Source of the DNA: Planctomycetota bacterium
GTDB lineage: Bacteria > Planctomycetota > SZUA-567 > H5-PLA8
DNA: 64,000 nt
Reading direction: 5' to 3'
Assembly (NCBI GenBank): GCA_038227875.1
Contig: JBBRPR010000025.1
Coordinates: 32,001 to 96,000 of the forward strand
Shown piece after piece: positions 4,560 to 63,251 of the stretch. The notes beneath the pieces were generated by a model. The model was not told the DNA's origin. It was given only the letters and a program-made list of their open reading frames with translations, and ran no database searches. The position numbers and the translations under genes were made by a program. Numbering within the stretch: the stretch's first letter is position 1; each line of letters starts with the position of its first letter.

Positions 4560-4590
4560 AGAATCCAATACTACCTATTGCCCTACCGGC

Positions 4591-41254: not shown

Positions 41255-43747
41255 TTATGATTTCACTTCAATTGCGGGTTCCACGCCGCGGAACTGGGAC
41301 GGCCATACCGGCGCCTGGGCTTCCGTCCAGGGATCGACATACGCATCGACGGCCTTCTGAATATCGGCGTCCAGTCGCGCGCAGATGCCTTCACTGTCGT
41401 TGACCAGAATGTCGCGCAGCAGTTCCACGCCGAGGCGTTCGAGGAAATGGTACGAACGCTCCTGGTACCGGCCGTGTTCGCGGTAGTACTGCATGAAGCG
41501 CCCCATGATCTTCAGCACTTCGTCGTGCGAAGTGACGGTGCAGAGCAGATCGCCTTTCCGCACTGCGCTGCCCGCCGCGCCGCCGACATAGATCTCCCAA
41601 AGTCCGCCTTCAATCGCGACGGCGCCGAGGTCCTTCACGTAGGCTTCTGAGCAGTTGCGCGGGCAACCGGCCGTGGCGAGCTTCATCTTATGCGGCGATT
41701 CGATGCCCTGGAAGCGGCGCTCGATCTTCTGCGCCAGCGCGATCGAGTCGCCGACGCCGTAGCGGCAAAAATCGGTGCCGACGCAACTCTTGCAAGTGCG
41801 GAACGCTTTCGTGTACGCATGTCCGCTGGGCATCCCCAGATCCTGCCAGACGCCAGGTAAATCTTCCTTCTTGATGCCGAGCAGATCGATGCGCTGGCCG
41901 CCGGTGATCTTCACCATCGGCACGTTGTATTTGATCGCAACGTCGGCGATGCGGCGGAGTTCATCGGGCGTCGTGACGCCCGCGTAGATGCGCGGGATCA
42001 CGGAGTACGTCGCATCCTTCTGAATATTGGCGTGCACGCGGTCGTTGATGAAGCGCGCGTCGCGTTCGTCTTCGTACTCATCCGGCCAGAGCGACTTGAG
42101 CAGCGAGGCCAAGCCCGCTTTGCTCGCCGCGTCTTCTTTGCCGCCGGCCAGTTCGCGGAAGACGGAACTGACCGACTTCAAGCCGCGCTTGCGAATCTCC
42201 TCGACCAGCGCCGCTTTTTCGTACGGCACGCCGGGCACGTAGTAATGTTCGCTCGGGTCGTCGCCCGCCGCGCCGCAGCCGGCGAGAATTTCGGTGATCA
42301 GCGGCTTGCAGCTTCCGCAACCCGATCCGGCTTTCGTGCAGGCTCCGATCTTGCCGACGCTGTTACAGCCGCCATCGCGAATCGCGGCGACGATCTGTCC
42401 TTTGCTCACACCATTGCAATTGCAGATCTGCGCTGCGTCCGGCAGGTCGGAGGCTTTGACCAGCGACTTGCCGGTTCGCGATCCGAAGAGCAGTTCCGCG
42501 CGCACGTCCGGCAGCGGCGTGTTGTTTTGGAAGAGCTGCATCAGCGACCCGAAATTGTCCGTCTCGCCCAGCAGAATCGCGCCGGCGAGCAGGTTGTCGC
42601 GGATGATCAGCTTTTTGTACACGCCGCGCGACGGCTCGCTGAAGGTGAGCACTTCGTCGGTCGGTTTCGCCGGACGCGTTTCGCCCAGTGAGCCGACTTC
42701 GACGCCCATCACTTTCAGTTTTGTGCCGAGCTTGGAGCCCAGGTACGCGGCGGTTTCGCGCGTGCCGGTGATGACATCGGCCAGCACCTTCGCCTGTTCC
42801 CAGATCGGATCGACGAGTCCATAGATGCGCCCGCGGTGCTGGACGCATTCGCCCAGCGAGAAGATATCGGGATCGCTAGTGCGCATCTGGTCGTCGACCA
42901 CGATCGCCTTCTCGACGGTCAATCCGGAAACCGATGCCACTTCCGTGATCGGGCGGATGCCGGCGCTGACGACGACCATGTCAGTCTCAAGGTACGAGCC
43001 GTCCTTCAGCGCCAGCCGCTTGATCGCGCCGTTTTCGCTCTCGATGCGCGCGGTGATTTTCTCGGTCAGCACCTTCACGCCCATCTTTTCCATCGCGGCG
43101 CGCAGCATCGCGCCGCCTTCGGTGTCGAGTTGCTGCGCCATGAGCTGCGGCGCGGCTTCGAGCACGGTGACTTCCACGCCATGCGTCAGCAGTCCGCGCG
43201 CGGCTTCGAGACCCAGCAAACCTCCGCCGATGACAGCGGCCTTCTTGCAATTCTTCGCGTAATGAGCGATGCGTTCGCAATCATCGATGGTGCGAAAGAG
43301 GAACGTGCCGGGCTGGCCGAAGCCTTCCATCGGCGGCACGAACGGCCGCGAGCCGGTTGCGATGATGATCGCGTCGTAATGCTCGGTGACCGGCGGCGTG
43401 TCTGGTTGCGACTCGGCATTTGCGGCGTAGGCCAGTGCGTCCTTCTTCAGCGGCGCGCCGATCACGACACGATTTTCGCGGTCGATCTTCGCGACCTTGA
43501 CGCCGGCATGGAGCGTGATGCCGTTCTGCGTGTACCAGCTTAGCGGATTGATGAAAATCTCCGCCGGCGCCTGCGTGCCGTTGAGCACGTTGCTGAGCAG
43601 AATGCGGTTGTAGTTCCCGTAGGGCTCGGCGCCGAACATGACGATGTCGAAGTGGTCGGGCGCGCGAGCGAGAATCTCCTCGACCACGCGGGCGCCGGCC
43701 ATGCCGTTGCCGATCACGACCAGCTTTTTGCGCTTCATCTTAACCAT
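41255..43747 (-). CDS. nirB: NAD(P)H-dependent nitrite reductase large subunit
   Basis: [26 protein letters not shown]...CGSC, and siroheme/4Fe-4S CKSCVG..FC and GCPRNC. Confidence 0.95.
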
Positions 43748-45992
43748 GTGTGAGCTCCTGACGGGAGCGCGCCGCCGTTGCTTTGTGCAACGCGACCGCG
43801 CCGGTTTTGTACGACGGTTGCTTGGAATGCGGATCGAAAACAGACGCCGTCAGCCGATTGACTTCCGGGTAATGCATGGGCAGAAAAACCTGGCCGCGCT
43901 GGATCATCGGCGTCAGCACCGCGCGCGCCGTGAGCGTGCCACGCCGCGAAGAGACTTCCACATCGCCGCCGTCCAGAATGTTCAGCGCCGCGGCATCTTC
44001 AGGGTGAATTTCAACGTACAGATTTTTCGGGTAGAGCGAACGCAGCGTCGCAGACTTCGAGGTGCGCGTCCCGGTATGCCACTGCGCCGAAGTTCCGCGG
44101 CCAGTGAGCAGCGAAAACGGATAGGCGTCGTCGGTAAGTTCGGGCGCGGCGGTCGGTGCATCGAAAATGAAGCGCGCGCGCTGGTCTTCGGTGAAAAATT
44201 TCCCGTCTTCGAAGAGGCGGCGTTCGTTCACGGAAAGATCCGTGCCCTCCGCGCAGGGCCATTGCACGCCGCCGCGCCGGTCGAGCATCGCGTAGCCGCC
44301 GATGCCCGTGATGTCGCAGGGCCGGCCGCGAGAAAGTCGCTGGAGAATGCGGAAGACGCTCTCCGGGTCCTTCCACTCTTGGAAGAGATCGCCGCAGCCC
44401 CAGTAATGCGCGGCGAGTTTGGAAATGTAAAAATCTGAGAGCGCTTCTCCGGGGGCGCGCGCGACTTTTTTCAGCAGGCCGATGCGCCTCTCGGAATTGA
44501 TGAACGTCCCTTCCTTCTCGCCCCAACCCGCGGCCGGTAACACGAGATGCGCGAGCTTGGCGGTGTCGGTGGTGTGGTACATGTCCTGGACGACGAGAAA
44601 TTCGAGCTTCTTGGCGAGCTCCATGAAATCGTTCTGATTGATCCAGGAATGCGCGGAGTTCGTGCCGAAAATCCACAGCCCTTTGACGACGCCGGAGCGC
44701 ACGCCGTCGATGATCTCGTTGTACGCCCAACTGTTGCGCGTGGGGATGCGGCTGGAGTCGAGATGGAGCAGCTCTGCGACGTCTTCACGGTCGGCTTGCT
44801 TGGTGAAATCGCGGCCGCCAAACAGATTTGTCGTGTTGCTGAAAATCCGCGAGCCCATCGCGTTGCACTGGCCGGTGATCGAATTCGCGCCGGTGCCGGG
44901 CCGCCCGATGTTGCCGGTCATCAGCGCGAGGTTGATGATCGCCTGCGCCGTCCGCGTGCCCTGGTGGCTCTGGTTCACGCCCATCGTCCACCAGAACGAG
45001 ACGCGCTTGCGTTCGTGAATCAGTTGCGCGAAGGCCGTGAGTTGCTCCGCGGAAATCCCGGTCGCCTGCGCAGTGCGTTCGAGCGTGAATGGCGCGACGA
45101 AGGCTTTGAATTCCGCGAAGCCGCCCGTGTGGCGTTCGACGAAACTCGCGTCGATCCAGCCGTTGTGAAAAAGAATGCGCGCGATGCCGTAGAGTAGTTC
45201 CAGGTCGGCTTTCGGCTTGAGCGCCAGATGGAGCGTCGCGGCCTGCGCGGTTTCGGTTTTGCGCGGATCGATCACGACGATCGCCGGATTGTTCTTGTTG
45301 CGCAGCACGCGCTCCCACAGGATCGGGTGCGCGATGCAGGGATTGGCGCCGAAGAAAATCAGCGCGTCGGACGCTTCAAAATCGGCGTAGGTGAACGGCG
45401 GCGCGTCGAAGCCGAAGGACTGCTTGTACGCCGTCGCGGCCGTGGCCATGCATTGGCGCGTGTTGCCGTCGCCGTGCTCAATGCCCATGCCGAACTTCGC
45501 CACCGCACCGAGCAGCGCGAGTTCCTCGGTCGGAAGCTGCCCCGAGCCGATCCAGGCCAGCGAATCAGCGCCGTGGTGATTTTGAATATCTTTGAAGCGC
45601 GACGTGAATTCCCGCATCGCGTGATCCCAAGTCACCGGCCGCATCGCGCCCTGGGCATCGCGTAACAGCGGGCGCGTGGCACGGTCGGGAGCGTGGAGCA
45701 CGTTCAGCGCTTCCCACCCTTTCGGGCAGGCCATGCCGAGATTAACGGGGTAGTCCGTGGACGCCGTGAGATTGATCGCTTCGCCATTGCGGAAGTGAAT
45801 GTTGAGTCCGCAACCCGTGGAACAAAAGCCACACACGGATGTCGTTGTCGCGTCCGGCGCGAGGCGCTCGGGAACTTGGCCGAGTCCAAACCCGCCGGAC
45901 TTCAGCGCGAGTTGCTGCGAGAGCACGCCATCCCACTGACGGAAGGCGTGGCGCAGGGATTCGGCCGTGAGATTCAGTCCCGGAACGCTCAT
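43740..45992 (-). CDS. nasA: Assimilatory-type molybdopterin nitrate reductase catalytic subunit (NasA/NarB-like)
   Basis: CGFCSTGC...[35 protein letters not shown]...QWHT; start 45992 overlaps the upstream stop (ATGA). Confidence 0.9.
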
Positions 45993-47617
45993 CGCGCGAG
46001 CCCTCCGGGCATCTTCAACGGCACGACGGCGGTGAAGTAGAGGTAGCGTTCGCACAGTTCGCTGACCAGCCAGAGCGCCGCAGCGACTGCCACCATCGCC
46101 ACAACACGTTCGGTCATGAACGTGGCGAGCAGAGGAAGCGCGATTCCGCCAACGATTCCGGTGACGAAGCGAGCGATGGTCGCGGTGCGAAGGTGATCGC
46201 GCATTAGCCGCGCGGATTTCTGATCGTAAGTCGCTTCCGCATTCGACGCGTGAAGCAGGTAGCGCAGTTCCAGCGCGAGTTTCAGTCCGCACAGCGTGGC
46301 AGCGAGCGCCGCGAAAGTCGGAAGACTCGAACTGCGCGAGAACGCCGCCGCGGCCAGCGAGCTCAAGCCGCCGGCGCAGAGCACGGAGAGATAGAATCGC
46401 GTCGCGCTGAGCGAAAAGCGCCAGAACGGGCGGCGCGTGTCGGCGTAAATCATCACCGAGCAGAAGACTGCGACGAGGCTCACCACCACCGCCACCGGAA
46501 GCAGCGCGGGAAGAAACAGCGCCGCACTATCCACGGCCGCGACGGCACCAAACGCGGCGACTTCGCGGCTGAGCCACGAGGTTCGCAGACCCAGGATCGC
46601 GCGGAATGCGAAGAGCGGACGGCCGAGATGCAGCAGCGCGCAGTGCATGCCAATCAGGTGCAGCGCCAGCGACGCAATCGTGGTGATGCGCGCCGGGCGC
46701 GCGTCGCCGTTGACGCTTAGCACCGACGCCGCCAGCATTCCGCCTGCGGCAAATTGGGTCAGCACCAGGGTCCAGACCAGCGCCATGTGACTGTGCGCGG
46801 GAGAAAGCTCGGTGGCGTCGCCGGCGTTCATCAGTTCTGGCAGCGGCTGCTGCGAACGGTAAATGGTGGAGGGGAGGGTATAGTCGGATTTCGGCGCGCT
46901 CGGAACGAGAACGGCAGCGCGCGAACGCTCGACAATTTTCTCGCGTGAAACGGTGGTGATGCGGATGGCGGTGTTCGGGCAGGCTTGCACGCAGGCCGGA
47001 GCTTCCTGCTTTTCCAGACGTGACGAACACATGTCGCACTTGCGGACGATACCGCGCGACGCGCTGTACTTCGGCACGTCGTACGGGCATTTTAGAATGC
47101 AGTACTGGCAACCGATGCACTGATCGTCGAGATGCTTGACGATGCCGGTCAGCAGATCCTTGTCGTACGCTTTGACCGGGCAGCCGTCCATGCAAGCGGG
47201 GTGCGCGCAATGGTGGCACGCGGCGGTCACCATTTTCATCAGTGGCAACTGCGGATCGGAACTGACGATCTGCCCGACCGCGCGCCACGTTTCGCCTTCA
47301 TCCAGTCCATTGAGGCTGTGGCACGCGGTGACGCAGGCTTTGCAGCCGGTGCAGGCGTCGAGGTCTACTTCAAACGCGTACTGTTCGCCGGGCCCCGGCG
47401 TCGTGAGTGGAATCAAGTCGCGGTAGTATTTGGACTGCACGGGCGCCACGGCGTGAGCGTGCTGCTGCGCGAAACGCTCAACGGCGGAGAGGTCGCGCTG
47501 ATCGCGAAGCAACTCGGCGATCAGGGATTCTCCGCTGGCCGGCAGTTCTGGAACGCGCCGTGTCGGTTCGGCCCGCTCCAGAACTGGCGTCCAATCGATG
47601 AGTGCTTCGTTTGACAC
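45989..47617 (-). CDS. Fused four-cluster ferredoxin (DmsB/NrfC-like) plus DmsC-type membrane anchor
   Basis: [18 protein letters not shown]...CP, CIGCQYC...CP, CDMC...PACVQACP; then about 8 TM with HLGRP and SWLSRE. Confidence 0.88.
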
Positions 47618-47640
47618 AATCGTCCTCAGAATTTTATCGT

Positions 47641-48453
47641 TTACTCAGCCGTTACCAGATGCGTGTCGCGTGCCGCGAGGTAATGCAGCAGGTGCTTACG
47701 GACGCGGTCGTATTCGGGATCGTCGAGCATGCGTTCGCGCGAGCGCGGACGCGTCAGCCCGACCTCGACCACTTCGCCGATGTGCGCGGCGGGTCCGTTG
47801 CTCATCAGAATGATGCGGTCGGAGAGATAAATCGCTTCGTCGACGTCGTGCGTGATCATCAGCACCGTCTTGCGCTCGCTCTCCCAGATTTTCAGCAGGT
47901 CGTCCTGCATGCGCCCACGGGTCAGGGCATCGAGCGCGCCGAAAGGTTCGTCGAGCAGCAGCACTTTCGGCTGAATCGCGAAGGCGCGCGCGATGCCGAC
48001 GCGCTGCTTCATGCCGCCGGAAATCTCCGATGGTTTTTTGTGCAGATGCGTGCCCAGCCCGACCTTCTGCAACTGTTTTTGCGCGGACGCACGGACTTCG
48101 TTCTTCGGCATCGCCGGGAAGACATTGGCGATCGCCATCTCCACGTTCTGCGCGACGGTCAGCCACGGCAGCAGCGAATGATTCTGAAACACTATGCCGC
48201 GGTCGGGGCCCGGTTCCCGGACCACCTTGCCTTCGAGCGTGACCGAACCGGACGTCGCCTGGTCGAGTCCCGCGACGATGTTCAGCAGTGTGCTCTTACC
48301 GCAGCCGGAATGTCCGATGATCGAAATGAACTCGCCCGCATCTATCGCCAGCGAAACGTCGCGCAGGGCTTCGTAGTCCGGACGCCCGGCGCCGCCGAAG
48401 AACACCTTGCTGACGGAGGCGATGCGAAGATAGGCTTCAGGTGTCGGAGGCAT
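47641..48453 (-). CDS. Nitrate ABC transporter ATP-binding subunit (NrtC/NrtD-like)
   Basis: GHSGCGKST, ISGGMKQRV, LLLDEPFGALDALTR. Confidence 0.92.
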   Translation of the reverse strand: MPPTPEAYLRIASVSKVFFGGAGRPDYEALRDVSLAIDAGEFISIIGHSGCGKSTLLNIVAGLDQATSGSVTLEGKVVREPGPDRGIVFQNHSLLPWLTVAQNVEMAIANVFPAMPKNEVRASAQKQLQKVGLGTHLHKKPSEISGGMKQRVGIARAFAIQPKVLLLDEPFGALDALTRGRMQDDLLKIWESERKTVLMITHDVDEAIYLSDRIILMSNGPAAHIGEVVEVGLTRPRSRERMLDDPEYDRVRKHLLHYLAARDTHLVTAE

Positions 48454-48472
48454 CAACGATTCCCTTCGTCTA

Positions 48473-48532
48473 ACCAGTGTGCCAATTGGCACACTGGTCA
48501 AAATCCAACGTCTGGCCAATTGGCCAGACGTT
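48473..48532. repeat. Two tandem perfect 26-bp palindromes
   Basis: ACCAGTGTGCCAATTGGCACACTGGT (48473-48498) and AACGTCTGGCCAATTGGCCAGACGTT (48507-48532). Confidence 0.9.
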
Positions 48533-48541
48533 CAGCATCGC

Positions 48542-49435
48542 TCAGTACGCGACTGCTTTTTCGATCTTCATCATGATCACATTGAGGATCAGTCCGATCG
48601 CGCCGATCAAGCCCATCGCCAGGATTGAGCGGTCGATCGAGCCGGCGTTGTATTGATCCCAGCAGAAGAAGCCGATGCCGTCCTGACCGTTGAGCATTTC
48701 CGCGGCCACAATCACCATCCACGCGATGCCCAGCGAAATGCGAAGTCCGGTGACAATGTGCGGCAGCGTCGCCGGCCAGTAGATCTGCCGGAAAATTTGC
48801 CAGCGCGTTAATTTCAGCATGCGCGCGACGTTGGTGTAGTCGGGGTTGATCTGGCCCACTCCGAAAGCGGTATTGAGCACCGTGGGCCAGAGCGAGCAGA
48901 TGAAGATCACAAACGTCGCGGCCATCGTCGGCGGCTTCAGCGTTTCGTTTTGCAGCGCCGGCGCGGAAAAGATCACCAGCGCGACCGGATACCAGGCCAG
49001 CGGCGAGATCGGGCGACAGAGTTCGATGATCGGATGAACCGCGCGGCGGACGAACGGCGAGCTGCCGATCACGAAGCCCAGCGGAATGGCGATGAACGCG
49101 CCGAGCGTAAAGCCGCAGAGCACGCGGGTGAGGCTGTAGAGCAGTAGCAGCGGCAAGCCGACGCGGTTCTGATCGCCCCAGAAATTCGCGCGGACGAATT
49201 CAATGCAAAGCTTCAACGTCACCAGCGGCCCTGGCAGATCGTGTGCGAAACAACTGATCAACGCCCACACGCACAGGGAAAATGCAATGCCAACGAGCGC
49301 CGGAAACGCGCGCGTGCGAACCCACACGGCAAACGGCCGGTCGCGCGGCGCAAGTTTCGCGACGGGTGCTTTCTTCGCCGCCGCCGGCGCAGCGGCAGCG
49401 GTCGCGTCAGTAAGTGCAAGGGCGGGCTGATTCAT
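48542..49435 (-). CDS. nrtB: Nitrate ABC transporter permease
   Basis: RPISPLAW, FICSLWPTVLNTAFGV, TGLRISLGIAWMVIVAAEML. Confidence 0.9.
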   Translation of the reverse strand: MNQPALALTDATAAAAPAAAKKAPVAKLAPRDRPFAVWVRTRAFPALVGIAFSLCVWALISCFAHDLPGPLVTLKLCIEFVRANFWGDQNRVGLPLLLLYSLTRVLCGFTLGAFIAIPLGFVIGSSPFVRRAVHPIIELCRPISPLAWYPVALVIFSAPALQNETLKPPTMAATFVIFICSLWPTVLNTAFGVGQINPDYTNVARMLKLTRWQIFRQIYWPATLPHIVTGLRISLGIAWMVIVAAEMLNGQDGIGFFCWDQYNAGSIDRSILAMGLIGAIGLILNVIMMKIEKAVAY

Positions 49436-49459
49436 TCCGTCTCTCCGTTGATGTTGCCA

Positions 49460-50737
49460 CTACGCCTTCAGCGCGAACGCCTGCGTGTACGCTTCCGGAT
49501 CGGCCGGATCGAACGTGACGCCATCGAAGAGCGTCTCCTTGCCGCGCGATTCCAGTCCGCCGGCTGGTGCCGCGACTCCCGCGCGCTTGCACGCTTCGGT
49601 GTAAATGTCGTGGCGCATGATCTTCTTCGCTTCGGCCAGGTAGTCGGGCTTGTCGGCGAGCATTCCCCAGCGGCGGTGCTGCGTCATGAACCACGTCGCG
49701 TGGCTCAGGTACGGCACAGTCGTGTCGCGCTCGAAAAAGCGCATGTAATCGGGATCGTCGACGACTGGCGCGCCGGGCGCGTGGACGTACTTGCCCTGCA
49801 GCCGGCCCAGGATCGTCTCCGGCTTGCAGTTGACGTATTCGGTTTTGCCGATGAGCTGCGCGGCTTCCTCGCGGTTTTTCATGTCGTCGAGCCAGCGGCA
49901 GGCTTCGAGCGTCGCGGCGGTCAGCGCGATGCAGGTCTTCGGGTTGGCCAGCGCGAACGATTCCATCACGCCGAGCACTTTTTCGGGATGGTTCTTCCAC
50001 AGCGCCTGCGTCGTGATCGCCGTGCCGCCGATGCCTTCGTCGACCGCTCGAGCACCCCAGGGTTCGCCGACGCAGAAGCCGTCCATGTTGCCGGTCTTCA
50101 TGTTGGCCACCATCTGCGGCGGCGGAATCGTGATCAGCTTCACGTCCTTGTCCGGATGCACGCCGCCCGACGCAAGCCAGTAGCGCATCCACATCGCGTG
50201 CGTCCCGGGCGGAAAGGTCATCGCGAACGTGAACTTCGCCTGCTTTTCGACGATCTGCTTTTTGATCTCCGCGGGCGTCTTCACGCCGGCGTCGAGCATC
50301 GGTTTCTTGATCGTGATTGCCTGGCCGTTGAGGTTCAGGCATTGCAGCACGCACATCGGCACTCTTTTGACCGGCGCGCCGACATCGCCGACGCCGAGCG
50401 AGGAGCCCACGCACATGCCGAGCAGAATGTGCGCGGCATCGATCTCGCCTTTTTGAATCGCATCGCGCGTTGCGCCCCAACTGGCCATCTTTTTGACGCG
50501 GACGTTTAAGCCGTATTTTTTGTAGAGGCCTTTCTCGGAAGCGATGACCAGCGGCGAACAGTCCGTGAGCGGAATGAAGCCGAGCGTCAGGTCGGTCTTC
50601 TCGACAGCGTCGTCGGCCCGGGCCACGCCGCTGAGCGGCTTGATCATCCCGCCAGCCGTCCAGGCTGCGGCCGCAATGCCGGCGAACTTCAGAAATCCGC
50701 GTCGATCCGTGTTCGTGTGTTCGGATTCGTTCTTCAT
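49460..50737 (-). CDS. nrtA: Nitrate ABC transporter substrate-binding protein (NrtA/CmpA family), Tat-exported
   Basis: RRGFLK Tat motif, LGFIPLTDC, TFPPGTH, PPPQMVANM, FCVGEPW, HPEK. Confidence 0.9.
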   Translation of the reverse strand: MKNESEHTNTDRRGFLKFAGIAAAAWTAGGMIKPLSGVARADDAVEKTDLTLGFIPLTDCSPLVIASEKGLYKKYGLNVRVKKMASWGATRDAIQKGEIDAAHILLGMCVGSSLGVGDVGAPVKRVPMCVLQCLNLNGQAITIKKPMLDAGVKTPAEIKKQIVEKQAKFTFAMTFPPGTHAMWMRYWLASGGVHPDKDVKLITIPPPQMVANMKTGNMDGFCVGEPWGARAVDEGIGGTAITTQALWKNHPEKVLGVMESFALANPKTCIALTAATLEACRWLDDMKNREEAAQLIGKTEYVNCKPETILGRLQGKYVHAPGAPVVDDPDYMRFFERDTTVPYLSHATWFMTQHRRWGMLADKPDYLAEAKKIMRHDIYTEACKRAGVAAPAGGLESRGKETLFDGVTFDPADPEAYTQAFALKA

Positions 50738-50773
50738 TTCAGTGCCGGCTCCCAGATTCAGAATTTTGGAAAC

Positions 50774-50843
50774 AAAAAAGGCGCAAGAATGAACGCCGTG
50801 CGTTCGTCCCCGCGCCTTCAACTTGCAGATCGCTTTCATCTGC
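50774..50843 (-). promoter_or_regulatory. 5' leader with intrinsic terminator and two upstream or overlapping hairpins (putative attenuator)
   Basis: mRNA AAGGCGCGGGGA..GAACGC-ACG-GCGUUC..UUCUUGCGCCUUUUUU lies 37 nt before the nrtA start; upstream hairpin GCAGAU-GAAAGCG-AUCUGC. Confidence 0.7.
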
Positions 50844-50905
50844 CCATTAAGGCGGCCCGCTGGATTGACTGCGAGCTGCGCTATGAATTGTCGAGGAGCG
50901 TTGAA

Positions 50906-50921
50906 AGCACGCGTCATGCCA
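50906..50921 (-). promoter_or_regulatory. Sigma54 (-24/-12) promoter of the nitrate operon
   Basis: Minus strand TGGCATGACGCGTGCT (GG-N10-GC); IHF-like ATCAATCAGTTA at 50951-50962. Confidence 0.7.
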
Positions 50922-51108: not shown

Positions 51109-51903
51109 TCAACATTTCGACGGCGTTTGCGTGTTCTGCGCGAGCAGATCCGAAAGCGATTTTCTCAGGTTTGCGAGTTCCTTCGACTTAAAGGAATCCT
51201 TCGTTTTTTCGAGCACATCGATAGTGCCGCGCAGCGCCAACTCGTACTGCGCCAGCCGCGGGCACTTGATCATGCGGCACAGATCGTTGCTGACGTCATT
51301 TTCGATCCGTCCGGTGCGCAGCACATCCATGGTCTGTTTCAGGCTGCTGGCGGAGTTCACGATGTTGTTGAGCGTCATTGCCAGGAACTGTTCCAACGTC
51401 AACGCGTTGGCCTGCGGCGCCGATGACGCGGAGAGCATCGCGCTGCGTTCCAGCGCCTGCAGTCGCTCCACGGAATGCGTCATGTCCTCCTGCGAACGCT
51501 TGATGTCGCGGAGCACTTCGCCCTTCTCCAGCGCGCGTGAGACCCGCTGCAGAAATTCGGTCTCGTCGATCGGTTTGACCAGGTAATCGACCACGGACAT
51601 GCGCAGCGACTGCACGGCCGATTGCACGGTCGGGAATCCGGTTACGACGATCACTGGCAGCCACGCCCGGCCGCTTTGCGTGTCGGCCAGAAATTCCAGG
51701 TCGCTGCTGCCGGGCATGTTGATATCAGTGATCAGCAGGTCGAAGTGCTTATTCTTCAACGCGTCCGCGGCTTCAATGGCGCTGAGCGCCGTGTCGCAGC
51801 GGTAGCCGTGATGGCGCAGCATCGCGGCGGTGGTACGCAGAAATATCTCTTCGTCATCGGCTAACAATATCGTCGCGGTCGGCGACTTTTTTGGCGCAAT
51901 CAT
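51109..51903 (-). CDS. Response regulator with REC domain and unrecognised helical output domain
   Basis: ILLADDE, LITDINMPG, VTG, YLVKP; C-terminal coiled-coil-like region with no HTH or AAA+ motif visible. Confidence 0.85.
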   Translation of the reverse strand: MIAPKKSPTATILLADDEEIFLRTTAAMLRHHGYRCDTALSAIEAADALKNKHFDLLITDINMPGSSDLEFLADTQSGRAWLPVIVVTGFPTVQSAVQSLRMSVVDYLVKPIDETEFLQRVSRALEKGEVLRDIKRSQEDMTHSVERLQALERSAMLSASSAPQANALTLEQFLAMTLNNIVNSASSLKQTMDVLRTGRIENDVSNDLCRMIKCPRLAQYELALRGTIDVLEKTKDSFKSKELANLRKSLSDLLAQNTQTPSKC

Positions 51904-52023
51904 TTCTTTTCCACCCCGTACCCACGTGCAGGAGTCGGTTGAACACAAGCAACGTACCAAACGCCCCACGAATAATTCCGTATGGGAAATGGCTGAACCG
52001 TGTGCGGCGTTTTGACGCGCTGG

Positions 52024-54330
52024 CTAAATTTGCGCAGAGTGGTGCGAGTTGTGCTCGCGTTTCAACACTTCATTCAGCGCGCGAAGTTGCGTGTCCGCAT
52101 CCGCCAGATCGCGGCGGAACGTGACAAAAATCGCGCGCGCCAGCTCCAAATTTCCAGCTCGGCAAGCGCTTTCCAGTTTTGACACGCCGTCCAGGGCACG
52201 CACCGCGCCGAGCGCCCCGGCGGCGCTTTTGATTGCATGCGCCAGTTGCGCGGCCTCGTTTAATTCGCCAACGTCAAGATGTTTTGCGATTCCGCTGACG
52301 CGTTCGGTGTTGCTTGTTTCAAAAATCCGCAGCAGTTCGTCGGGAAGATTGGGATCTTCCGGCGTCTGCAGTTGCCACAGTCGACGCAGCAAGCTCGCGT
52401 CAATTACCCGTTCGCTTGAGTTCGATGGAGCCGGCGCGGATTCGCTCAAATCAGGCGTTGGCGCGATCTCAATCCACGGCAGCAGCGCCGCACGGAGTTC
52501 CTCGATCTGCACCGGCTTGGCCAGATGCGCGTCCATGCCCGCAGCCAGACATTTTGCGCGCTCTTCGGATGAATTGTGTGCCGTCAGCGCGAGGATCGGA
52601 ATTCGCTTCCCCGCGCCTTCGTTTTCGCGAATGCGGCGGGCCGTCGCGTAGCCATCGAGCACTGGCATTTGGCAGTCGAGCAGGATCAGATCGAAGCGCT
52701 CGCGCTCGAGGCGCTCCAGCGCTTCCAGCCCATGACAGGCCAGTTCGCACGGAATGCCCAGATGCTTCAACTGCAGCGCGATGACGCGCCGGTTGACTTC
52801 GACGTCCTCCACGACCAGCACGCGGACGTGAGCCGCCCCGACCGCGGCCTTGCGCAGCGCCACGGCGATCGTTGGCTCATTCTCTGCGGCGATTTGGAAC
52901 TGCGCGGTAAACCAGAATTCCGAACCCTTGCCCAGTTCGCTCTCAACGCCGATGTCCCCGCCGAGCAGTTTCGCCAGTTCGCGGCAAATCGTTAGTCCCA
53001 GCCCGAATCCCGTGTGCTCGCGCGTCGGCGAATCGTCGGCCTGCGTGAACGGTTCGAAAATGCGCGCGCGATCCTGCGGCGCGATGCCCGGCCCGGTATC
53101 GCGCACACCGACGCGCAGCGTCACGCCGCGGTCCGTGCGCACCTGCACCGTCGCGCTGACGGTAATCTCGCCGCGCTCGGTGAATTTGATCGCGTTCCCC
53201 AGCAGATTCAGCGTGATCTGCCGCAGGCGGCGGGCGTCGCCGCGCAGGCGGGGCAGCAGATCGGCACTCAAATTCAGCTTCAGCGGCAGCGACTTCTGCT
53301 TCGCCGCAAACGACTGAATCTCCACCGCTTCGCGAAGCACCACGGCCGGATCGAATCTCTCCACGGCCAGCGACGCCTTTCCGGAGCTGAGCTGCGAATA
53401 GTCCAGCACGTCGTTGACCAGCGCATGCAACGTGTCGGCGCTGAGTTGCATCGTCTGAGCGAATTCCTGCTGCTCTTTCGTCAGGCGCGTGGTGAGCAGC
53501 AGTCCGCTCAAGCCTACGATCGCGTTCAACGGCGTGCGGATTTCATGGCTGACGTTGGCCACGAAGGCCGACTTCGCGCGCGTCGCGGCTTGCGCGTCCT
53601 CCAGCGCCTTTTCCAGCGCTGCGTTCTTGGTTGCGAGTTGCTCTTCGGCCGAAATCATGCGGGCAAACGACGAATGAATCTTGGCCACCGCAGGGCGGAA
53701 AACGAAGAGAGCTTCCAGCGCCAGCACCACCAGCAGCACGGCGAACAGGGCGAGTTCAAAGAGCTTCAACTTGGCCACGCGTGCGCGGGCGTCTTCGTCG
53801 TAGCGAAAGACGATATGGTCCATCGTGGAAAGAAACGCGCCTTCGTGAGCAAGGACCGTTTTCAGCGCGTCCTGCGGCAGCGCCGCGCCCAGCGCGTGGG
53901 CCTGCAAAATTGCTCGCGCGGCGCTGAGCATCGCCTCGAAATGCGGCGCCGCCTCGCCGTACATGCGCTGAATCTCGGCGGAATTCTCACCGGGAAGTTC
54001 CAGCTCCGCATCGCCCTTCTGCAACCCGCGGTTCGATCGTTCCCAGAGCTCCGCGACGGCTTTCAATTCGTCGAATCGCTGCGCGTCGTCGGGATCGGCC
54101 GTCAGCGCCAGCACGCATTTGCTCAAGCGCTGGCTGAGCATGCGCTGCCGTCCGGCGAGATTGACCACGCGCGCATCGCGCGATTGGGTGAGCAGCGCGC
54201 GCTGAATCAAAAACTGTCCGGCCAGCGAGAGCGCCGCAACCAGGCTCAATGCCACGATGTACCGGACGCGCAGTGAGTTGGATGCGATGCGCCGCGATAC
54301 ATTCAGGCGCGCTGAAGAGTCCATGTCCAT
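52024..54330 (-). CDS. Hybrid histidine kinase with NarX/PilJ-type nitrate-sensing domain (HisKA, HATPase, REC, Hpt)
   Basis: TM followed by [13 protein letters not shown] (P-box-like) and a second [29 protein letters not shown] Hpt. Confidence 0.88.
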
Positions 54331-54411
54331 CCCGGATCGTTCGTCCAAACGTAAGATGTTTCTTCCGATGCTAACAAAACGGTAAAGCCCAGGCGCAACC
54401 TTCGGGCCAAA

Positions 54412-54474
54412 TGCAGGCGGGACGCCCGCACCACAATTCATGGATCGCGATGCGCAACAGGCGTCCCGCTTGCA
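54412..54474. repeat. REP-like inverted pair
   Basis: TGCAGGCGGGACGCCCGCACCAC (reverse complement GTGGTGCGGGCGTCCCGCCTGCA) and GGCGTCCCGCTTGCA. Confidence 0.6.
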
Positions 54475-54552
54475 AACCCTTGCACGCTCCCACGTCTTGC
54501 CGTCCACCCTTAATGGGTTATCCTCACGACCGAACATCAGCGAAAGGCATGC

Positions 54553-56040
54553 ATGCTCGATCCCGCTCCGGACGTTCCGGAAATTCAGAAGACAGAATTC
54601 GAATCGTCCGCATCCGTTCCCCGCGAGTCCCAGCGCCTGGACCACATGGACCAGCTGGGTGATTCGTATTACGCGATCCTGCTGCTCACCGGACCGCTGG
54701 TCCTCTCGTCGACCGGCCTGATGCTGATGCATATTTTCGACGCCGTGCTGCTCTCGCGGTATTCGAAGCAGGCGATAGCGGTGGTCGGCTCGGCGAGCAT
54801 GGCGGCGTTCGTGTTGATCAGCTTTTTCATCGGCATCACCGCGTACACGGCCACGTTCGTGGCGCAATACATGGGCGCGCGGCGGCCGGAGCGCGTCGGC
54901 CCGGCGGTGTGGCAGGGAATTTATGTCGCGCTGGCCGCGGGCGTGTTCACGTCCCTCGTCGGAACGCTGATCGCGCCGCCGCTCTTTCACTGGGTCAATC
55001 ACGGCCCGGCGCTGGAACTGCTTGAACAGCGCTACTTCCGGATCATGTGCTACGGCGCGACGTTCAGTCTGCTCGGCGCGGCGCTCTCGGGATTTTTCTC
55101 CGGGCGCGGCGACAACCGTACCTTAATGATCGTCCAGTTGAGTGGCTTCGTGATCAACGCCGGCTTGAGCTACTGCGCCATCTTCGGCCGCTTGGGCCTG
55201 CCGGAACTCGGCGCGCTCGGCGCCGCCACTGCGACGGCCTGCGCGCAGGGTTGCGTCACGCTGATGCTCTCCGTGATTTTCCTGAGCCCCCGCCACCGCG
55301 CGAACTACCAGACGTGGACCTCGCGCGCGTTCGATTGGGCGCTGCTCAAACGCATGACCTATTTCGGTGCGTTCAACGGCATGCGCGCTGTAACCGAGCT
55401 TCTCGCGTGGACGCTCTTTCTCTGCTTCGTCGGACGGCTGGGTGAAGACGTGATGGCGATCACCAACATCGTCTGGCGACTCAACGGCATCGCGTTCTTT
55501 CCGCTGATCGGTTTGTCGACGGCGATCGCCACGCTGGTTGGACACGCGCAAGGCCGTCAGGATTCCCGCCGCGCCGAAATCATCACCTGGCGCGGCGTGA
55601 TCATGGCCGAAGGCTGGATGTTATTTGCCGCGTCGCTGTTCGTACTCTTTCCGCGCCCGCTGTTGAATCTGATCATGGGCGGCGAAGGCGCGTCGGAGCT
55701 GGCTCCGATGATCGAGACCGGCACGAGTCTGCTCCGCTTCGTGGCGCTCTATTGTCTGCTCGACGGACTGAACATTGTTTTCATGGGCGCGCTGCAAGGC
55801 GCCGGCGACACGCGCTGGACGCTGATCGCCTCGTTCATTCTCCACGTCATATTTCTGACGGCGCTGTTCGTCATCGACGCGTACTACCAGAACCTCTTGA
55901 TCTTCTGGACCGCCGCGACCTCGTTCGTGATGCTCCAAGCCGGCGTCTGGGTCCTGCGCTTCAAATCTGGGAAATGGAAATCGATGCGCGTCATTGAAGG
56001 CGATGGCGACGGTGAAACCGCACTGCCCTTTGCCCATTAG
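54553..56040 (+). CDS. MATE family efflux transporter
   Basis: About 12 [34 protein letters not shown]. Confidence 0.92.
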
Positions 56041-59702: not shown

Positions 59703-62700
59703 CTACAAAGGGCTCAACTTGGCGAACAGCGCGCCGAGCGCAGGCTCGTACTTGCGCCAGCGTTCGACGGAACGTTGATGAATCGGCTCGCGCACCTGCG
59801 TGATGCTGGCGGTGCGGACCACGCGGTCGGTCTGGTGGAAGTTCAAGCACGCCGGATCCCATTCGAGATTCGCGAACGCCAGCAGCTTCCGCGCGCTCCC
59901 TTCCAGATCGGCGACGGTCGCTTCGTAATCGACATCCAGGAACCGCCCGGGCAGCACCGTCCGCCAATGCGCCATGATCCGCTGGTATTGGGCGATGTGC
60001 GAAGCGATCGCGTCTTCGTTCGTCGCCCAGCGGATGTGGCGGAAGTTGGTCATCCAGCACGAGACGGCAATGTCGCGCAGGTCGCGGCGGCAATGGATGA
60101 TCTTTGCGTTCGGAAAAAGCAACGCAATCAGCCCAATATAAAGGTAGTTCTCCGGCATCTTGTCGACGACATGCTCGGCGCTGCTGTTCAGTGCCGCGAG
60201 CCGCTCGAGATGTCCGCGCGCCACGATCTGCGCGGCTTCGGGCGTGATCTGGCTCAGGCAGCGCAGCGCCGACTCCTTGGAATTCATGACGGCCGGCAGC
60301 GACTGCAGACTCGCGCGGACAAACGAAAGCTCACCGGCGCCGTGAACTTTCTTGTGGCTGGCGAGTATCTGTTCGGTCAGCGTCGTGCCGGAGCGCGGCA
60401 GGCCGAGCACAAAAATCGGTCGCGCGCTCGGCGAGCCGAAGCCGCTCGTGCGCGCGAGAAACTCCGGCGTGAAGATACCGATGAGCTCCGAGACCAGCGC
60501 CGCGTGTTCGGCGGGATCGTACCCTCTGCCGCGGCGCGCGCGTTCGCGCGTCGATGTCGCGTTGGCTTCACGCAGTAACCCCGCGGCGCGCTCGTACTGG
60601 CCCTTGCCGTCGAGGACGTGTGCGAGCGCGTATTGCAGCGGCGCGCGGCGGAAGGGCGTAAGCCGGGGGCTCTGCAGATACGCTTCCAGTGCGGCCTGAT
60701 CGTCGGCGGAGAGCTTGCCGCGGTGGAGCATCGCCAGTTGCGTGCTGGCCGACGGATTAAAGCGCCGCAAATGCAGCGCGTTGCGCAGGCAGCTTTCGGC
60801 GTCCTTCATTTTGCCCAGCTCGGCGTAGTACTCGCCAAGCCCCACGAACGCACTGGCGTGTGTGGGCTGGATGCGAATGGCTTCGCGGAAGTGCGCTTCG
60901 GCTTCGGCGTGGCGGCCGTCTTCCAGCAGTAGCGACGCCAGACCTTCGTGCGCTTCCACATAAGAAGGATCGGTTTCGAGCGCCTTGCGGAAAAGCGCTG
61001 CCGCTTCGCCGTTGCGGTCGAGCTCGCGCATCAGGCTCGCCACGTTGGTGTAGATGCGCGCGGACTTCGGATCCTGCTGCACGGCCCGCTGATACCAGTT
61101 GAAGGCCTCCGCCAGATCGCCTTCTTCTTGAAAGGCCTGCGCGATGTTGTTGCAGGTCAGCGCGGAATTGGGATTGAGGCGCAGTGCTTCGGCGTAACAG
61201 GATTTGGCGTCGGCGATGCGGCCCAGTTCGCGCAGCACATTGCCGAGGTTGTTGCGCGCGGGGAAGAATCCCGGGTCGAGTTCCACGGCGCGCTGGCAGT
61301 AGGTCCGCGCTTCTTCGTACTGAAATTCTTCGAGCAGCAACTGGCCGAGGTTGCTGTGCGCTTCGACGAAATTCGGATCGGCCTGCGCGGCCTTGCGGAA
61401 GTACGCCAGCGCGCCCTCGGTATCGCCGCTCCGGCGCAGCACGTTGGCCAGATTGTTCAGCGCCTGCGCGAAGTTGGGATTGTAGCGCAGCGCCGTTTCG
61501 TATCCCGCGCGCGCTTCGGCCAGATTACCCTGCGCTTCCAGCACCAGGCCGAGATTGTTGGCCGCTTCCGCATAGCGCGGCTGGTACTGCAGCGCGGCGC
61601 GGAAGCACTGCGCGGCAGTGTCGAACTGCCCCAGCCGCCGGAAGGCTTCGCCTTGATTGCAATGAAACGATGCTTCGGCCGGACGGAGCGCGATGGCGCG
61701 GCCGATCAGCTCAGCAGCTTTCTGCGGCTGATTCAACTGCAGCGCCGCGACGCCGAGCATGTGCAGCGCGTTGGGTTCGAAGGGATTCTCCTGCAGCACC
61801 GCTTGATAAATCTGCGCCGCCTGCTGGATCTGTCCGCTCTGATGCAGTTTCACCGCGGCCGCGATTTGCTGGCCGGCCTGCACGTTGGCGGCGCGCGCTT
61901 CGGGCGTGGGCAGATTCGGCGCAGGGGGCGGCGGCGCGGTGCTGACCACGTTGGCTTTGACGGAGCCGTCATCACTTTTGGAGAGCACCGCGACGGAATT
62001 CTTCCATGGCACGGTGGCCGTAATGCCCGTCGGTTGCGCTTTCGGATTCGGTTCACCGCGCGGCGTGTTGATGAGCTCGATGATCCGCGCGAAGAGTTTC
62101 TCGCCCTGCGCAATCGGATCGAGGTCCTTGTACTTCGCCGCAAAGCTCCGCGCGCCGGCGATGAGCTGCTTGGAATTCAGCGCCTTATTCAGGCAGTGCG
62201 GGAACTCCTCCGGCTTTTCCGGCTCCAGCGTCAGGCCCGCGCCTAGCGTTTCCAGACGCAGCGACATCAGGCGCTGTTCCAGATGCAGCGGCGCGGTGAC
62301 GACCGGCACGCCGGAGACGATCAGTTCCATCGTCGTCGCGTGATTGCCATTGGTGATGGCCAAGTCGCATTCCTTCGCGACGCGCTGCAAGTCGAGCGGT
62401 TCGGCCACGAACTTCAACGTCTCGGAGCGGAAGCGCTGGATCACGTCCTCGGGAATTTCATCGGGCACGATCAGCGTCGGCAGGCGCGAGGCGTTGAGAT
62501 TCTGGAGCAGCGAGGGCAGATGCTCGAAGGGCTTCAAGTACGCGAAGATCTTCTTATTCGGCGCGGTTGGCCATTCCGGCGTGGCGCCAGGGTAGCGTGA
62601 GATCAGTCCGTAGTAGTTCGCGCCCGGCCGCGGCGCGTAGTGATCGACTTCGGAATATGTGCGAAAGGCCAGTTCGTTGGGATTGCTGAAGAGTTCTCCC

Positions 62701-63251
62701 AGCCGTTGCAAATTGGGCGCGTCGAGTTTGGTGAGGACGGCGTTGACCGTCTGCAACATCGCGTCTTCTTCGGCGCGCAACGCGGCTACATCGATCTCCA
62801 TCCACAACCGCATGTTGGTCAGCGGATACGTGTCCGGAGGGATCAGAAATCCGGTGCCGAGGATCAACTGGCGGATCCCCAAGCCACGCAGAGCGACCAG
62901 CGCGGTCGGGCTATGGTCGGCGATGACGAGGTCCGGCTTGATGAGGTCAAACATCGTGCGCCATGCAGATACGGCTGAATTTAGGGTCGGCTCATGATCG
63001 AAAAATTGGTTTTGCAGAATGTGCACGTAGGACAGCGAAAGTTTTGCCGAATTTCTTGCAACCTGCTGCTTGACCGGGGCTTGAAGGACTCGTACAGTCA
63101 CGCCCTTAAACGCCAAATCGGCTTTGGAAACGTCGCGCAAGGCGAAGTAAACGGAGTGGCCCTGTTGCGTCAGGTTCTGCGCAAGTGCACGGTACTGGGC
63201 GAGGTGGCCCATCCCGGCGCCGAGTTCCCAAACGAAAAGCACGGATGACAT
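59703..63251 (-). CDS. Fusion protein: GT-B glycosyltransferase + TPR repeats + PAPS-dependent sulfotransferase
   Basis: WELGAGMGH, DLVIADHSP, AITNGNHATT, PLHLEQ; Pro-rich linker; more than 10 TPRs (A.NNLG); PIFVLGLPRSGTTL and RRDLRDIAVSC PAPS motifs. Confidence 0.88.
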   Translation of the reverse strand: MSSVLFVWELGAGMGHLAQYRALAQNLTQQGHSVYFALRDVSKADLAFKGVTVRVLQAPVKQQVARNSAKLSLSYVHILQNQFFDHEPTLNSAVSAWRTMFDLIKPDLVIADHSPTALVALRGLGIRQLILGTGFLIPPDTYPLTNMRLWMEIDVAALRAEEDAMLQTVNAVLTKLDAPNLQRLGELFSNPNELAFRTYSEVDHYAPRPGANYYGLISRYPGATPEWPTAPNKKIFAYLKPFEHLPSLLQNLNASRLPTLIVPDEIPEDVIQRFRSETLKFVAEPLDLQRVAKECDLAITNGNHATTMELIVSGVPVVTAPLHLEQRLMSLRLETLGAGLTLEPEKPEEFPHCLNKALNSKQLIAGARSFAAKYKDLDPIAQGEKLFARIIELINTPRGEPNPKAQPTGITATVPWKNSVAVLSKSDDGSVKANVVSTAPPPPAPNLPTPEARAANVQAGQQIAAAVKLHQSGQIQQAAQIYQAVLQENPFEPNALHMLGVAALQLNQPQKAAELIGRAIALRPAEASFHCNQGEAFRRLGQFDTAAQCFRAALQYQPRYAEAANNLGLVLEAQGNLAEARAGYETALRYNPNFAQALNNLANVLRRSGDTEGALAYFRKAAQADPNFVEAHSNLGQLLLEEFQYEEARTYCQRAVELDPGFFPARNNLGNVLRELGRIADAKSCYAEALRLNPNSALTCNNIAQAFQEEGDLAEAFNWYQRAVQQDPKSARIYTNVASLMRELDRNGEAAALFRKALETDPSYVEAHEGLASLLLEDGRHAEAEAHFREAIRIQPTHASAFVGLGEYYAELGKMKDAESCLRNALHLRRFNPSASTQLAMLHRGKLSADDQAALEAYLQSPRLTPFRRAPLQYALAHVLDGKGQYERAAGLLREANATSTRERARRGRGYDPAEHAALVSELIGIFTPEFLARTSGFGSPSARPIFVLGLPRSGTTLTEQILASHKKVHGAGELSFVRASLQSLPAVMNSKESALRCLSQITPEAAQIVARGHLERLAALNSSAEHVVDKMPENYLYIGLIALLFPNAKIIHCRRDLRDIAVSCWMTNFRHIRWATNEDAIASHIAQYQRIMAHWRTVLPGRFLDVDYEATVADLEGSARKLLAFANLEWDPACLNFHQTDRVVRTASITQVREPIHQRSVERWRKYEPALGALFAKLSPL

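Follow-up and report, generated by a model that had tools for sequence, protein, structure and literature searches.

The subject of this report is a pair of genes (51109..54330, minus strand) in a window of 64,000 nucleotides (nt) of contig JBBRPR010000025.1 from the Planctomycetota bacterium GCA_038227875.1, together with the leader of the nitrate-assimilation operon that lies downstream of them. The genes encode a hybrid sensor histidine kinase and a response regulator. Our data lead us to propose – with a probability of roughly 0.6 – that the pair is a nitrate-responsive phosphorelay that opens the operon by antitermination, a proposal in which both the binding of RNA and the sign of the effect are predicted. 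The evidence that carries it is the coupling, across phyla, of the C-terminal tail of the regulator with a structured RNA element; to this are added the architectures of the two proteins, an exact N-box match in the kinase sensor and the structure of the leader itself. All loci in the window are given in its own coordinates (Table 1), and kinase, regulator, leader and operon share the minus strand.

The regulator tail and its RNA element

A central issue is the output of the regulator. Pfam (here, as for all proteins of the window, at E≤0.01) finds a receiver (REC) domain only and leaves the last ~135 residues without a match; no NCBIfam model reaches its cut-off, the best, FixJ, scoring 73 bits against 255. 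Both databases bear out the first-pass annotation, which had described a receiver followed by a ~135-residue tail with no helix-turn-helix (HTH), AAA+ or clear ANTAR motif; the CxxxxC and LEKTKDSFKSKELANLRK strings that it had pointed to are present. A word-indexed search returned about 35 full-length homologues at 30–95% identity, none with an annotation more specific than "response regulator"; across 35 aligned homologues, D17, D60 and K110 of the receiver never vary. Alignment A2 comprises 46 tails from fetched loci, the window tail being one row. Its C-terminal block, which the window regulator carries, reads [IV]xVLxxTKxxF[KR]SKxLxxLR: within TKxxF[KR]SKxLxxLR the T, F and S are invariant (46/46), K or R occupies +1 in every tail (46/46), 44 of the tails have K at +7, and 45 have R at +13. 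The CxxxxC pair is kept in 35 of the 46.

A search of 1.84 billion proteins with the tail profile – against which the window regulator scores 119.7 bits, although A2 includes its sequence – gave 1350 cluster representatives at E≤1e-3 and 736 at ≤1e-10. Nearly all of the 1350 are ~245–265 residues long with the tail at ~124–245, and the family occurs in Nitrospirota, anammox and other Planctomycetota, Verrucomicrobiota, Acidobacteriota, Gemmatimonadota, Methylococcales and others; the genome to which the window belongs (88% complete) holds a single tail gene. When nine tail proteins of odd length were scanned with Pfam, the tail stood behind a MEDS domain in one and behind PAS in three, replacing the receiver. 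These four (P0156, P0208, P0219 and P0245), with the tail C-terminal to MEDS or PAS-PAS, are one-component versions of the same output. A stand-alone open reading frame (ORF) of 97 residues, comprising the tail without a receiver, exists in genome G036. Found behind MEDS, behind PAS and alone, the tail behaves as a portable output domain, and on the strength of these sequences we assign it to a large undescribed family.

Comparison by sequence, profile and fold gave the tail no specific relative. AlphaFold2 models it as helices only (predicted local distance difference test score, pLDDT, 77 for the tail alone): a long helix extends alpha5 of the receiver and three to four more helices follow. 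The full regulator model retrieved only receiver domains in a fold search, and Foldseek pdb with the tail-only model returned nothing at E≤0.001. A wide fold search of the tail model peaked at Z 8.4, over residues 1–75 only, with generic helical hairpins and within the noise for helical models; a PDB profile search gave coiled-coil noise only, and a feature search of the ESM Atlas a single unnamed cluster, whose score of 0.76 falls short of the lead threshold. HTH matches among the 46 tails are not consistent (one to HTH_28 at E 0.05 and one to HTH_WhiA at E 0.025). A predicted homodimer of the tail scored 0.37 against a mark of 0.42 and was used neither way.

The possibility that the tail is an ANTAR domain was considered and rejected. 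ANTAR (PF03861) matched none of the 46 tails at E≤1, and hhalign of the A2 profile against five REC-ANTAR proteins of the phylum gave a probability of 0.2%. In the window's genome the best ANTAR score, in a search at E≤10, was 14.2 bits against a cut-off of 27.3; the same search, validated on 101 genomes of the phylum, found proteins of 65–79 bits in five of them.

Evidence for a partner of the tail came from the DNA printed past regulator stop codons in distant phyla. There we found a common element: (G)CCUUGUCG, a hairpin of 5–6 bp with a variable loop of 6–9 nt, YAAGUYGAAGGCRC, and then the remainder of an intrinsic terminator, the AAGGCRC of the element being the 5′ arm of that terminator. 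A covariance model (R1), seeded with 20 leader instances – the window instance among them – and searched against 1.30 Mb of sequence, places full-length matches (E≤1e-4) in 31 of the 45 loci that bear the tail, and 27 of the 45 have theirs on the same strand, starting no more than 600 nt after the regulator stop; 15 of these are seed loci and 12 are not. Twenty-nine control loci (394 kb), which encode a related receiver without the tail and came from the same scan as the tail-bearing loci, yielded none at E≤1e-3 and one match at E 0.047. Presence and absence tell the same story: among 41 genomes of the G412 family, seven have both tail and motif, one has the tail only, none has the motif only and 33 have neither, and in all seven co-occurring genomes the motif closely follows the tail ORF, with which it shares contig and strand. 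The hypergeometric probability of such a table is ~4e-7 if the genomes are independent; the genomes around G412 are kin, and the figure therefore overstates the case. Taken together, these data make it very probable that the tail family acts through the leader element.

The structure of the element is supported by covariation. Each of the five hairpin pairs has changed on both sides, with pairing in 95% of cells; the covariation score was reached by none of 500 shuffles, and slid controls are 26–49% paired. The terminator stem also covaries, with, for example, GC in ten instances against AU in ten at one pair. Rfam 15 has no match for the element, for the window or for six other loci. A simpler probe, the exact 14-mer GCAAGTTGAAGGCG, was tried on 401 genomes of the phylum and set aside: it was found in 30, at about the rate of a reversed control, and apart from its own locus the surrounding sequence was unrelated.

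What surrounds the element elsewhere is varied. The genes that follow are mostly those of chemoreceptors (at least ten loci), with CheY-like receivers, CheR, kinases, an HD-GYP regulator, Crp, a LuxR-type regulator and porins also represented, and a HisKA kinase of PAS, GAF or Cache type lies directly upstream of the regulator in 11 of 14 annotated loci. Three genomes searched whole hold one, four and six full-length copies. In Candidatus Scalindua (L016, G414:C16) five full-length elements lie in ~26 kb around the tail regulator and one on another contig; several stand ahead of CheY-like receivers and Cache kinases, an arrangement that looks like a small regulon. In Candidatus Scalindua rubra (L049, 1188-3517) the element lies ahead of a chemoreceptor that bears two PilJ domains. 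At the G036 locus (L184, 8050-9698) the element comes within ~15 nt of the stand-alone tail ORF and is followed by an OprB-family porin gene. A sample of 151 genomes of the phylum, in which RNA scoring was shallow, gave the motif in two and the tail in two, numbers too small for a useful comparison; a weak motif match in G138 (30.7 bits) has no tail on its 9.8-kb contig.

The kinase, the leader and the nitrate operon

The kinase ORF spans 55002..52024, and the start that we favour, at 54330, is the first methionine before a credible signal-anchor. From the N-terminus the protein comprises a first transmembrane segment (TM1), a periplasmic PilJ/N-box sensor, a second such segment (TM2), HisKA, HATPase_c, REC and Hpt. 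The PilJ domain (PF13675) scores 62.2 bits against a cut-off of 26.6, and 68.1 bits in a six-frame search of the genome, in which it is the sole PilJ domain. Neither HisKA_3 nor HAMP is in the Pfam list for the kinase. The TorS, BarA and ArcB models of NCBIfam match its core, all under cut-off, and no NCBIfam model reaches cut-off; the likeness is thus one of architecture and not of orthology.

The sensor bears directly on the signal. The first-pass annotation had noted a 13-residue P-box-like string in a HisKA/REC/Hpt kinase that is not of the HisKA_3 type, and Pfam and the sequence agree on both counts; the string begins at 54165. Within it a 12-residue segment matches the N-box pattern [IVL]-[ND]-x-A-G-x-Q-R-M-L-[ST]-Q at 12 of 12 positions. 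This pattern was derived by Martin-Mora et al. from the nitrate-bound PilJ domain of McpN (PDB 6GCV) and is proposed in their paper as a marker of nitrate-binding PilJ domains, with sensor kinases among its carriers; PilJ domains without it are there stated not to bind nitrate (PMC6381276). Sequence matches of the sensor in the PDB include the PilJ structures 7zjr (1.5e-6) and 8wdf and the nitrate-bound McpN ligand-binding domain 6gcv (0.0019), in which the block aligned to the kinase N-box is INVAGAQRMLSQ; NarX and NarQ chains are absent from these matches at E≤1. The earlier label of a "NarX-type sensor" therefore holds in part: with all 12 positions matched the P-box likeness goes beyond chance, but the closest class is the McpN-type N-box PilJ domain and not NarX proper. 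We read the kinase as a new member of this bioinformatically known class, a predicted nitrate sensor placed on a phosphorelay kinase. The order has just one further PilJ-sensor kinase (L170, G004:C104, 5012-6445), a plain PilJ-HisKA-HATPase protein with a sensor 46% identical; it is followed by a 181-residue receiver-only protein (4576-5121) and does not lie beside the nitrate operon.

The leader of the operon lies on the same strand as the regulator gene, and the match to R1 begins ~250 nt past the regulator stop. It is the only copy of R1 found in the genome, in a search that scored part of the candidates. Over 158 nt the leader has a minimum free energy of -59.6 kcal/mol (z -2.5), with a strong intrinsic terminator at its end, 35 nt ahead of the nrtA ATG. 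Upstream of the element lies a sigma54-type promoter candidate, the one match to TGGCAYN6TGCW in the window (0.58 expected by chance); rpoN is present in the genome.

Gene order, with Pfam and NCBIfam assignments, confirms the earlier statement that kinase and regulator lie upstream of the nitrate operon and are co-oriented with it. Between nrtC and the NasA-like protein a 4Fe-4S dicluster protein (DmsB/HybA-like) is fused to a DmsC-like membrane anchor, which suggests that 43740-47617 encodes a quinol-linked assimilatory nitrate reductase; the two genes are kept in the relative G004 (54% and 65% identity). Elsewhere in the window a MatE efflux gene (54553-56040, plus strand) is divergent from the kinase gene, and 59703-63251 (minus strand) encodes a protein of 1182 residues with many tetratricopeptide repeats and a sulfotransferase domain at its end.

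Comparison with relatives hints at how the locus arose. The nearest regulators are 95% (P0003) and 77% (P0004) identical; L088 (54%), the only closer homologue seen with flanking DNA, shows a sigma54-type element (by eye), an identical GCAAGUUGAAGGCG, a terminator and a hairpin that differs by two compensatory changes. In a sample of 20 genomes of the order the tail was found in three and the sensor in two. Three genomes of the same family (G004, G015 and G014; L167, L168 and L169) carry nrtA at 76% identity, G004 with a complete nrtABC-FeS/DmsC-nasA-nirB row. By eye, each has a sigma54-type element ahead of nrtA (CTGGCATGCTCGGTGCT, TGGCACGGCCATTGCG and TGGCACAACCGTTGCA) and none has a terminator leader or adjoining two-component genes; G004 and G015 show no match to kinase or regulator upstream of nrtA, nor does G014 in the ~3 kb present. 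A porin-like gene occupies the position upstream of nrtA in G004. Kinase-regulator pair and terminator leader thus appear to come as one, atop an older sigma54-controlled operon. Four DNA runs checked for leader variants showed near-identical contigs only, with no informative variation.

Table 1. Features of the locus in window coordinates, with strand and basis of assignment
Feature	Position	Strand	Basis
Hybrid sensor histidine kinase, 768 residues	52024..54330	-	ORF, start MDMDSS, Pfam
N-box, 12 residues	54130-54165	-	pattern fit 12/12
PilJ four-helix sensor domain	53899..54189	-	PF13675 5.8e-17
Phosphorelay core	52096..53577	-	Pfam; coordinates computed from residue ranges
HisKA (PF00512)	53380-53577	-	Pfam 4.2e-19
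HATPase_c	52897-53241	-	Pfam 1e-29
Kinase REC	52483-52821	-	Pfam 3.5e-26
Hpt	52096-52338	-	Pfam 8.3e-10
Response regulator, 264 residues	51109..51903	-	likely start MIAPKK at 51903, stop 51109
Regulator REC	51541-51870	-	Pfam 9e-22
Tail (output) domain, residues 128-264	51112..51522	-	alignments A1, A2; AlphaFold2
Invariant tail block VLEKTKDSFKSKELANLRK	51160-51216	-	alignment
Sigma54-type -24/-12 promoter candidate TGGCATGACGCGTGCT	50906..50921	-	TGGCAYN6TGCW match
Conserved leader element	50772..50858	-	R1 match 63.1 bits, E 3.4e-14
Leader 5′ GCCUU, can pair with AAGGC	50849-50853 and 50814-50818	-	fold scan
Leader hairpin GCAGAU/AUCUGC	50825-50843	-	covariation
Leader conserved block AAGUUGAAGGCGC	within 50772..50858	-	model R1
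Intrinsic terminator with U-run	50772-50818	-	terminator scan
Nitrate operon	41255..50737	-	Pfam, NCBIfam
nrtA	49460-50737	-	ATG 50737; NMT1_2 6.8e-95, twin-arginine (TAT) signal
nrtB, permease	48542-49435	-	Pfam, NCBIfam
nrtC, ATPase	47641-48519	-	Pfam, NCBIfam
4Fe-4S/DmsC fusion	45989-47617	-	Pfam, NCBIfam
NasA-like molybdoenzyme	43740-~45990	-	Pfam, NCBIfam
nirB	41255-43747	-	Pfam, NCBIfam

Mechanism and competing explanations

Our data suggest the following mechanism. The periplasmic N-box PilJ domain of the kinase would, to judge from its motif, bind nitrate, and phosphoryl groups would pass from HisKA by way of REC and Hpt to the receiver of the adjacent regulator, a path suggested by domain order and adjacency. 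The helical tail of the regulator, with its invariant basic helix-loop-helix block TKxxF[KR]SKxLxxLR, would recognise the leader of the sigma54-driven nrtA transcript at CCUU, the hairpin and AAGUUGAAGGC, the last of these being also the 5′ arm of the strong intrinsic terminator. Binding of the tail would hold AAGGC out of the terminator and RNA polymerase would read into nrtABC-nasA-nirB; with no signal, the terminator of 12–14 bp would win. General nitrogen control would be supplied by the sigma54 promoter together with an AAA+ activator distinct from the regulator.

Several observations weigh against this reading and have to be set beside it. The proposed antiterminator pairing CCUU/AAGG, paired in 87.6% of cases, is nearly invariant and hardly covaries, and in some instances (for example L038) it is broken; the data are consistent with it rather than a demonstration of it. 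No search by sequence or structure found in the tail any likeness to a known RNA-binding fold. Fourteen of the 45 tail loci have no motif match, although one of these (L013) has just 38 nt past the gene. Among Nitrospirales, six loci whose tails lack the Cys pair (CxxxxCPR; L027, L040, L041, L047, L054 and L090) have no element even with filters off, the best match (E 0.0092) falling at a distant site. In two of the six, L027 and L054, GACAAGTTGAG[GA]CGCC can be seen by eye after a hairpin, a degenerate look-alike that is possibly a diverged target. Only some of the candidates were scored in whole-genome searches for the element. At many loci the distance from the regulator stop to the start of the element is no more than 50–120 nt, and the terminator could simply end the regulator's own transcript. 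Finally, in the 45 tail loci elsewhere tblastn, over distances of up to 10 kb, gave no match to NrtA, NrtB, FeS/DmsC, NasA or NirB; the role in nitrate assimilation thus depends on the window locus and the N-box, and the co-occurrence with nitrate operons looked for on the basis of the first-pass annotation did not materialise, the regulator family being not nitrate-specific. The broader suggestion of that annotation, that a nitrate phosphorelay replaces NasS-NasT with the tail as RNA antiterminator or protein-interaction module, fares better: its antiterminator option is backed by the tie of the tail to the leader across phyla, and no ANTAR protein was detected in the genome.

Could the leader serve something other than the tail? 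It might be a riboswitch or be bound by some other factor, with the tail a protein-interaction module (for RNA polymerase, a termination factor or the AAA+ activator) and tail gene and RNA element travelling together for some other reason. An all-helical bundle with generic coiled-coil-like matches only would suit such a module, the 14 loci without an element would be accommodated, and conserved single-stranded blocks are typical of riboswitches too. Yet the downstream genes serve diverse functions – nitrate transport in the window, and elsewhere those of chemoreceptors, CheY-like proteins, CheR, kinases, Crp and porins – and what stays the same is the tail gene immediately upstream, even where that gene is a stand-alone tail ORF; nor would the distribution in the G412 family (7/1/0/33) be expected, and a short element with one small hairpin and variable loops makes a poor ligand pocket. 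We consider this explanation improbable. The conserved blocks invite another thought. Most response-regulator output domains bind DNA, their usual target, and the tail could be a new DNA-binding domain for which CCTTGTCG and AAGTYGAAGGC form an operator, acting by repression, roadblock or co-activation; both blocks are well conserved as sequence, and in the model the last two helices with the basic loop could form a helix-loop-helix-like reading head. The hairpin between the blocks, however, covaries in its stem and drifts in its sequence, a pattern indicating that selection acts on a folded single strand. Moreover, the orientation of the element is fixed, always into an intrinsic terminator whose 5′ arm belongs to a conserved block; the window copy comes after the promoter candidate, within the transcribed leader; and the 46 tails match no HTH family consistently. 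A DNA operator is, in our estimation, quite improbable.

A final alternative accepts that the pair acts on the leader and differs in sign or signal: the phosphorylated regulator would favour termination, or the kinase would sense nitrite or another anion. Direction cannot be read from sequence. As for the signal, NarX-type and PilJ sensors differ in their discrimination of nitrate and nitrite (PMC8199190), and a PilJ domain as such is no guarantee, since those without an N-box are reported in PMC6381276 to bind no nitrate. Here, however, the N-box is complete (12/12), and a site ahead of an operon for nitrate uptake and reduction fits induction by substrate. The terminator, with 12–14 pairs, is also far stronger than the alternative pairing of 4–5 bp, so that the unaided default would be termination and the regulator would be needed for opening. 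We accordingly give a reversed sign or a different signal little chance, and retain nitrate-responsive antitermination as the preferred account.

Comparison with known systems and significance

The closest parallels in logic are the ANTAR regulators – EutW/EutV of Enterococcus faecalis, NasS-NasT and NasR – in which a signal-activated regulator encoded near its target acts on a leader where a hairpin competes with a terminator. The nitrate cases among them share with the window locus a leader behind a nitrogen-controlled promoter, and the protein plan is similar: a receiver, a coiled coil and a small helical output, which in both families also occurs behind PAS or other sensors. The RNA differs. 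ANTAR targets comprise two short hairpins with hexaloops bearing A1 and G4, the second overlapping the terminator (PMC3369931); in place of these dual hexaloop hairpins with 3-bp stems the element described here has one hairpin of 5–6 bp, flanked by CCUUGUCG and AAGUYGAAGGC. Nitrate is sensed by NasS or a NIT domain in those systems, and here, we predict, by a membrane hybrid kinase. In its logic the locus follows EutVW, NasST and NasR, but its protein domain and its RNA both seem unrelated to theirs.

On the sensory side the same PilJ four-helix sensor and N-box are found in McpN, the Pseudomonas aeruginosa chemoreceptor, whose nitrate contacts G58, A59, R61 and M62 lie in the N-box block according to the McpN study (PMC6381276). 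Identity between the sensors is low (E 0.0019), binding here is predicted, and the output is HisKA-HATPase-REC-Hpt instead of the signalling domain of a methyl-accepting chemotaxis protein. With NarX and NarQ the kinase shares a periplasmic helical sensor between two transmembrane segments and a P-box-like G-x-x-R site beside TM1; all nitrate/nitrite sensor kinases of that type carry HisKA_3, as the NarX/NarQ review states (PMC8199190), whereas ours has HisKA and no detected HAMP, with REC and Hpt added. Its partner, unlike NarL and NarP, has no GerE-type HTH. HisKA, HATPase_c, REC and Hpt in one chain recall hybrid kinases such as TorS, BarA and ArcB.

In a 2025 review the RNA-binding antiterminator domains named are CAT and ANTAR, with ANTAR as the RNA-binding output of response regulators (PMC12591593), and the literature that we searched, supplements aside, holds no description of the tail family or of its RNA element. 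We lean, if only slightly, towards regarding the tail as the second output domain of two-component systems to bind RNA, one that has no relation to ANTAR, mainly gates chemoreceptor and signalling genes elsewhere and is here coupled to a nitrate-sensing hybrid kinase. A pair so small and defined – a protein of ~120 residues and an RNA of ~50 nt – is directly testable, and potentially an orthogonal switch. If the proposal is true, a second, unrelated RNA-binding domain, paired with an RNA of its own, would extend the classification of bacterial signal outputs by a new branch and give a function to more than 1000 proteins that are at present a receiver plus an unknown. It would also offer a clue to the switching of chemoreceptor genes in nitrite oxidisers, anammox bacteria and planctomycetes, and would explain how this organism achieves nitrate-specific assimilation without NasR, NasT or NarL.

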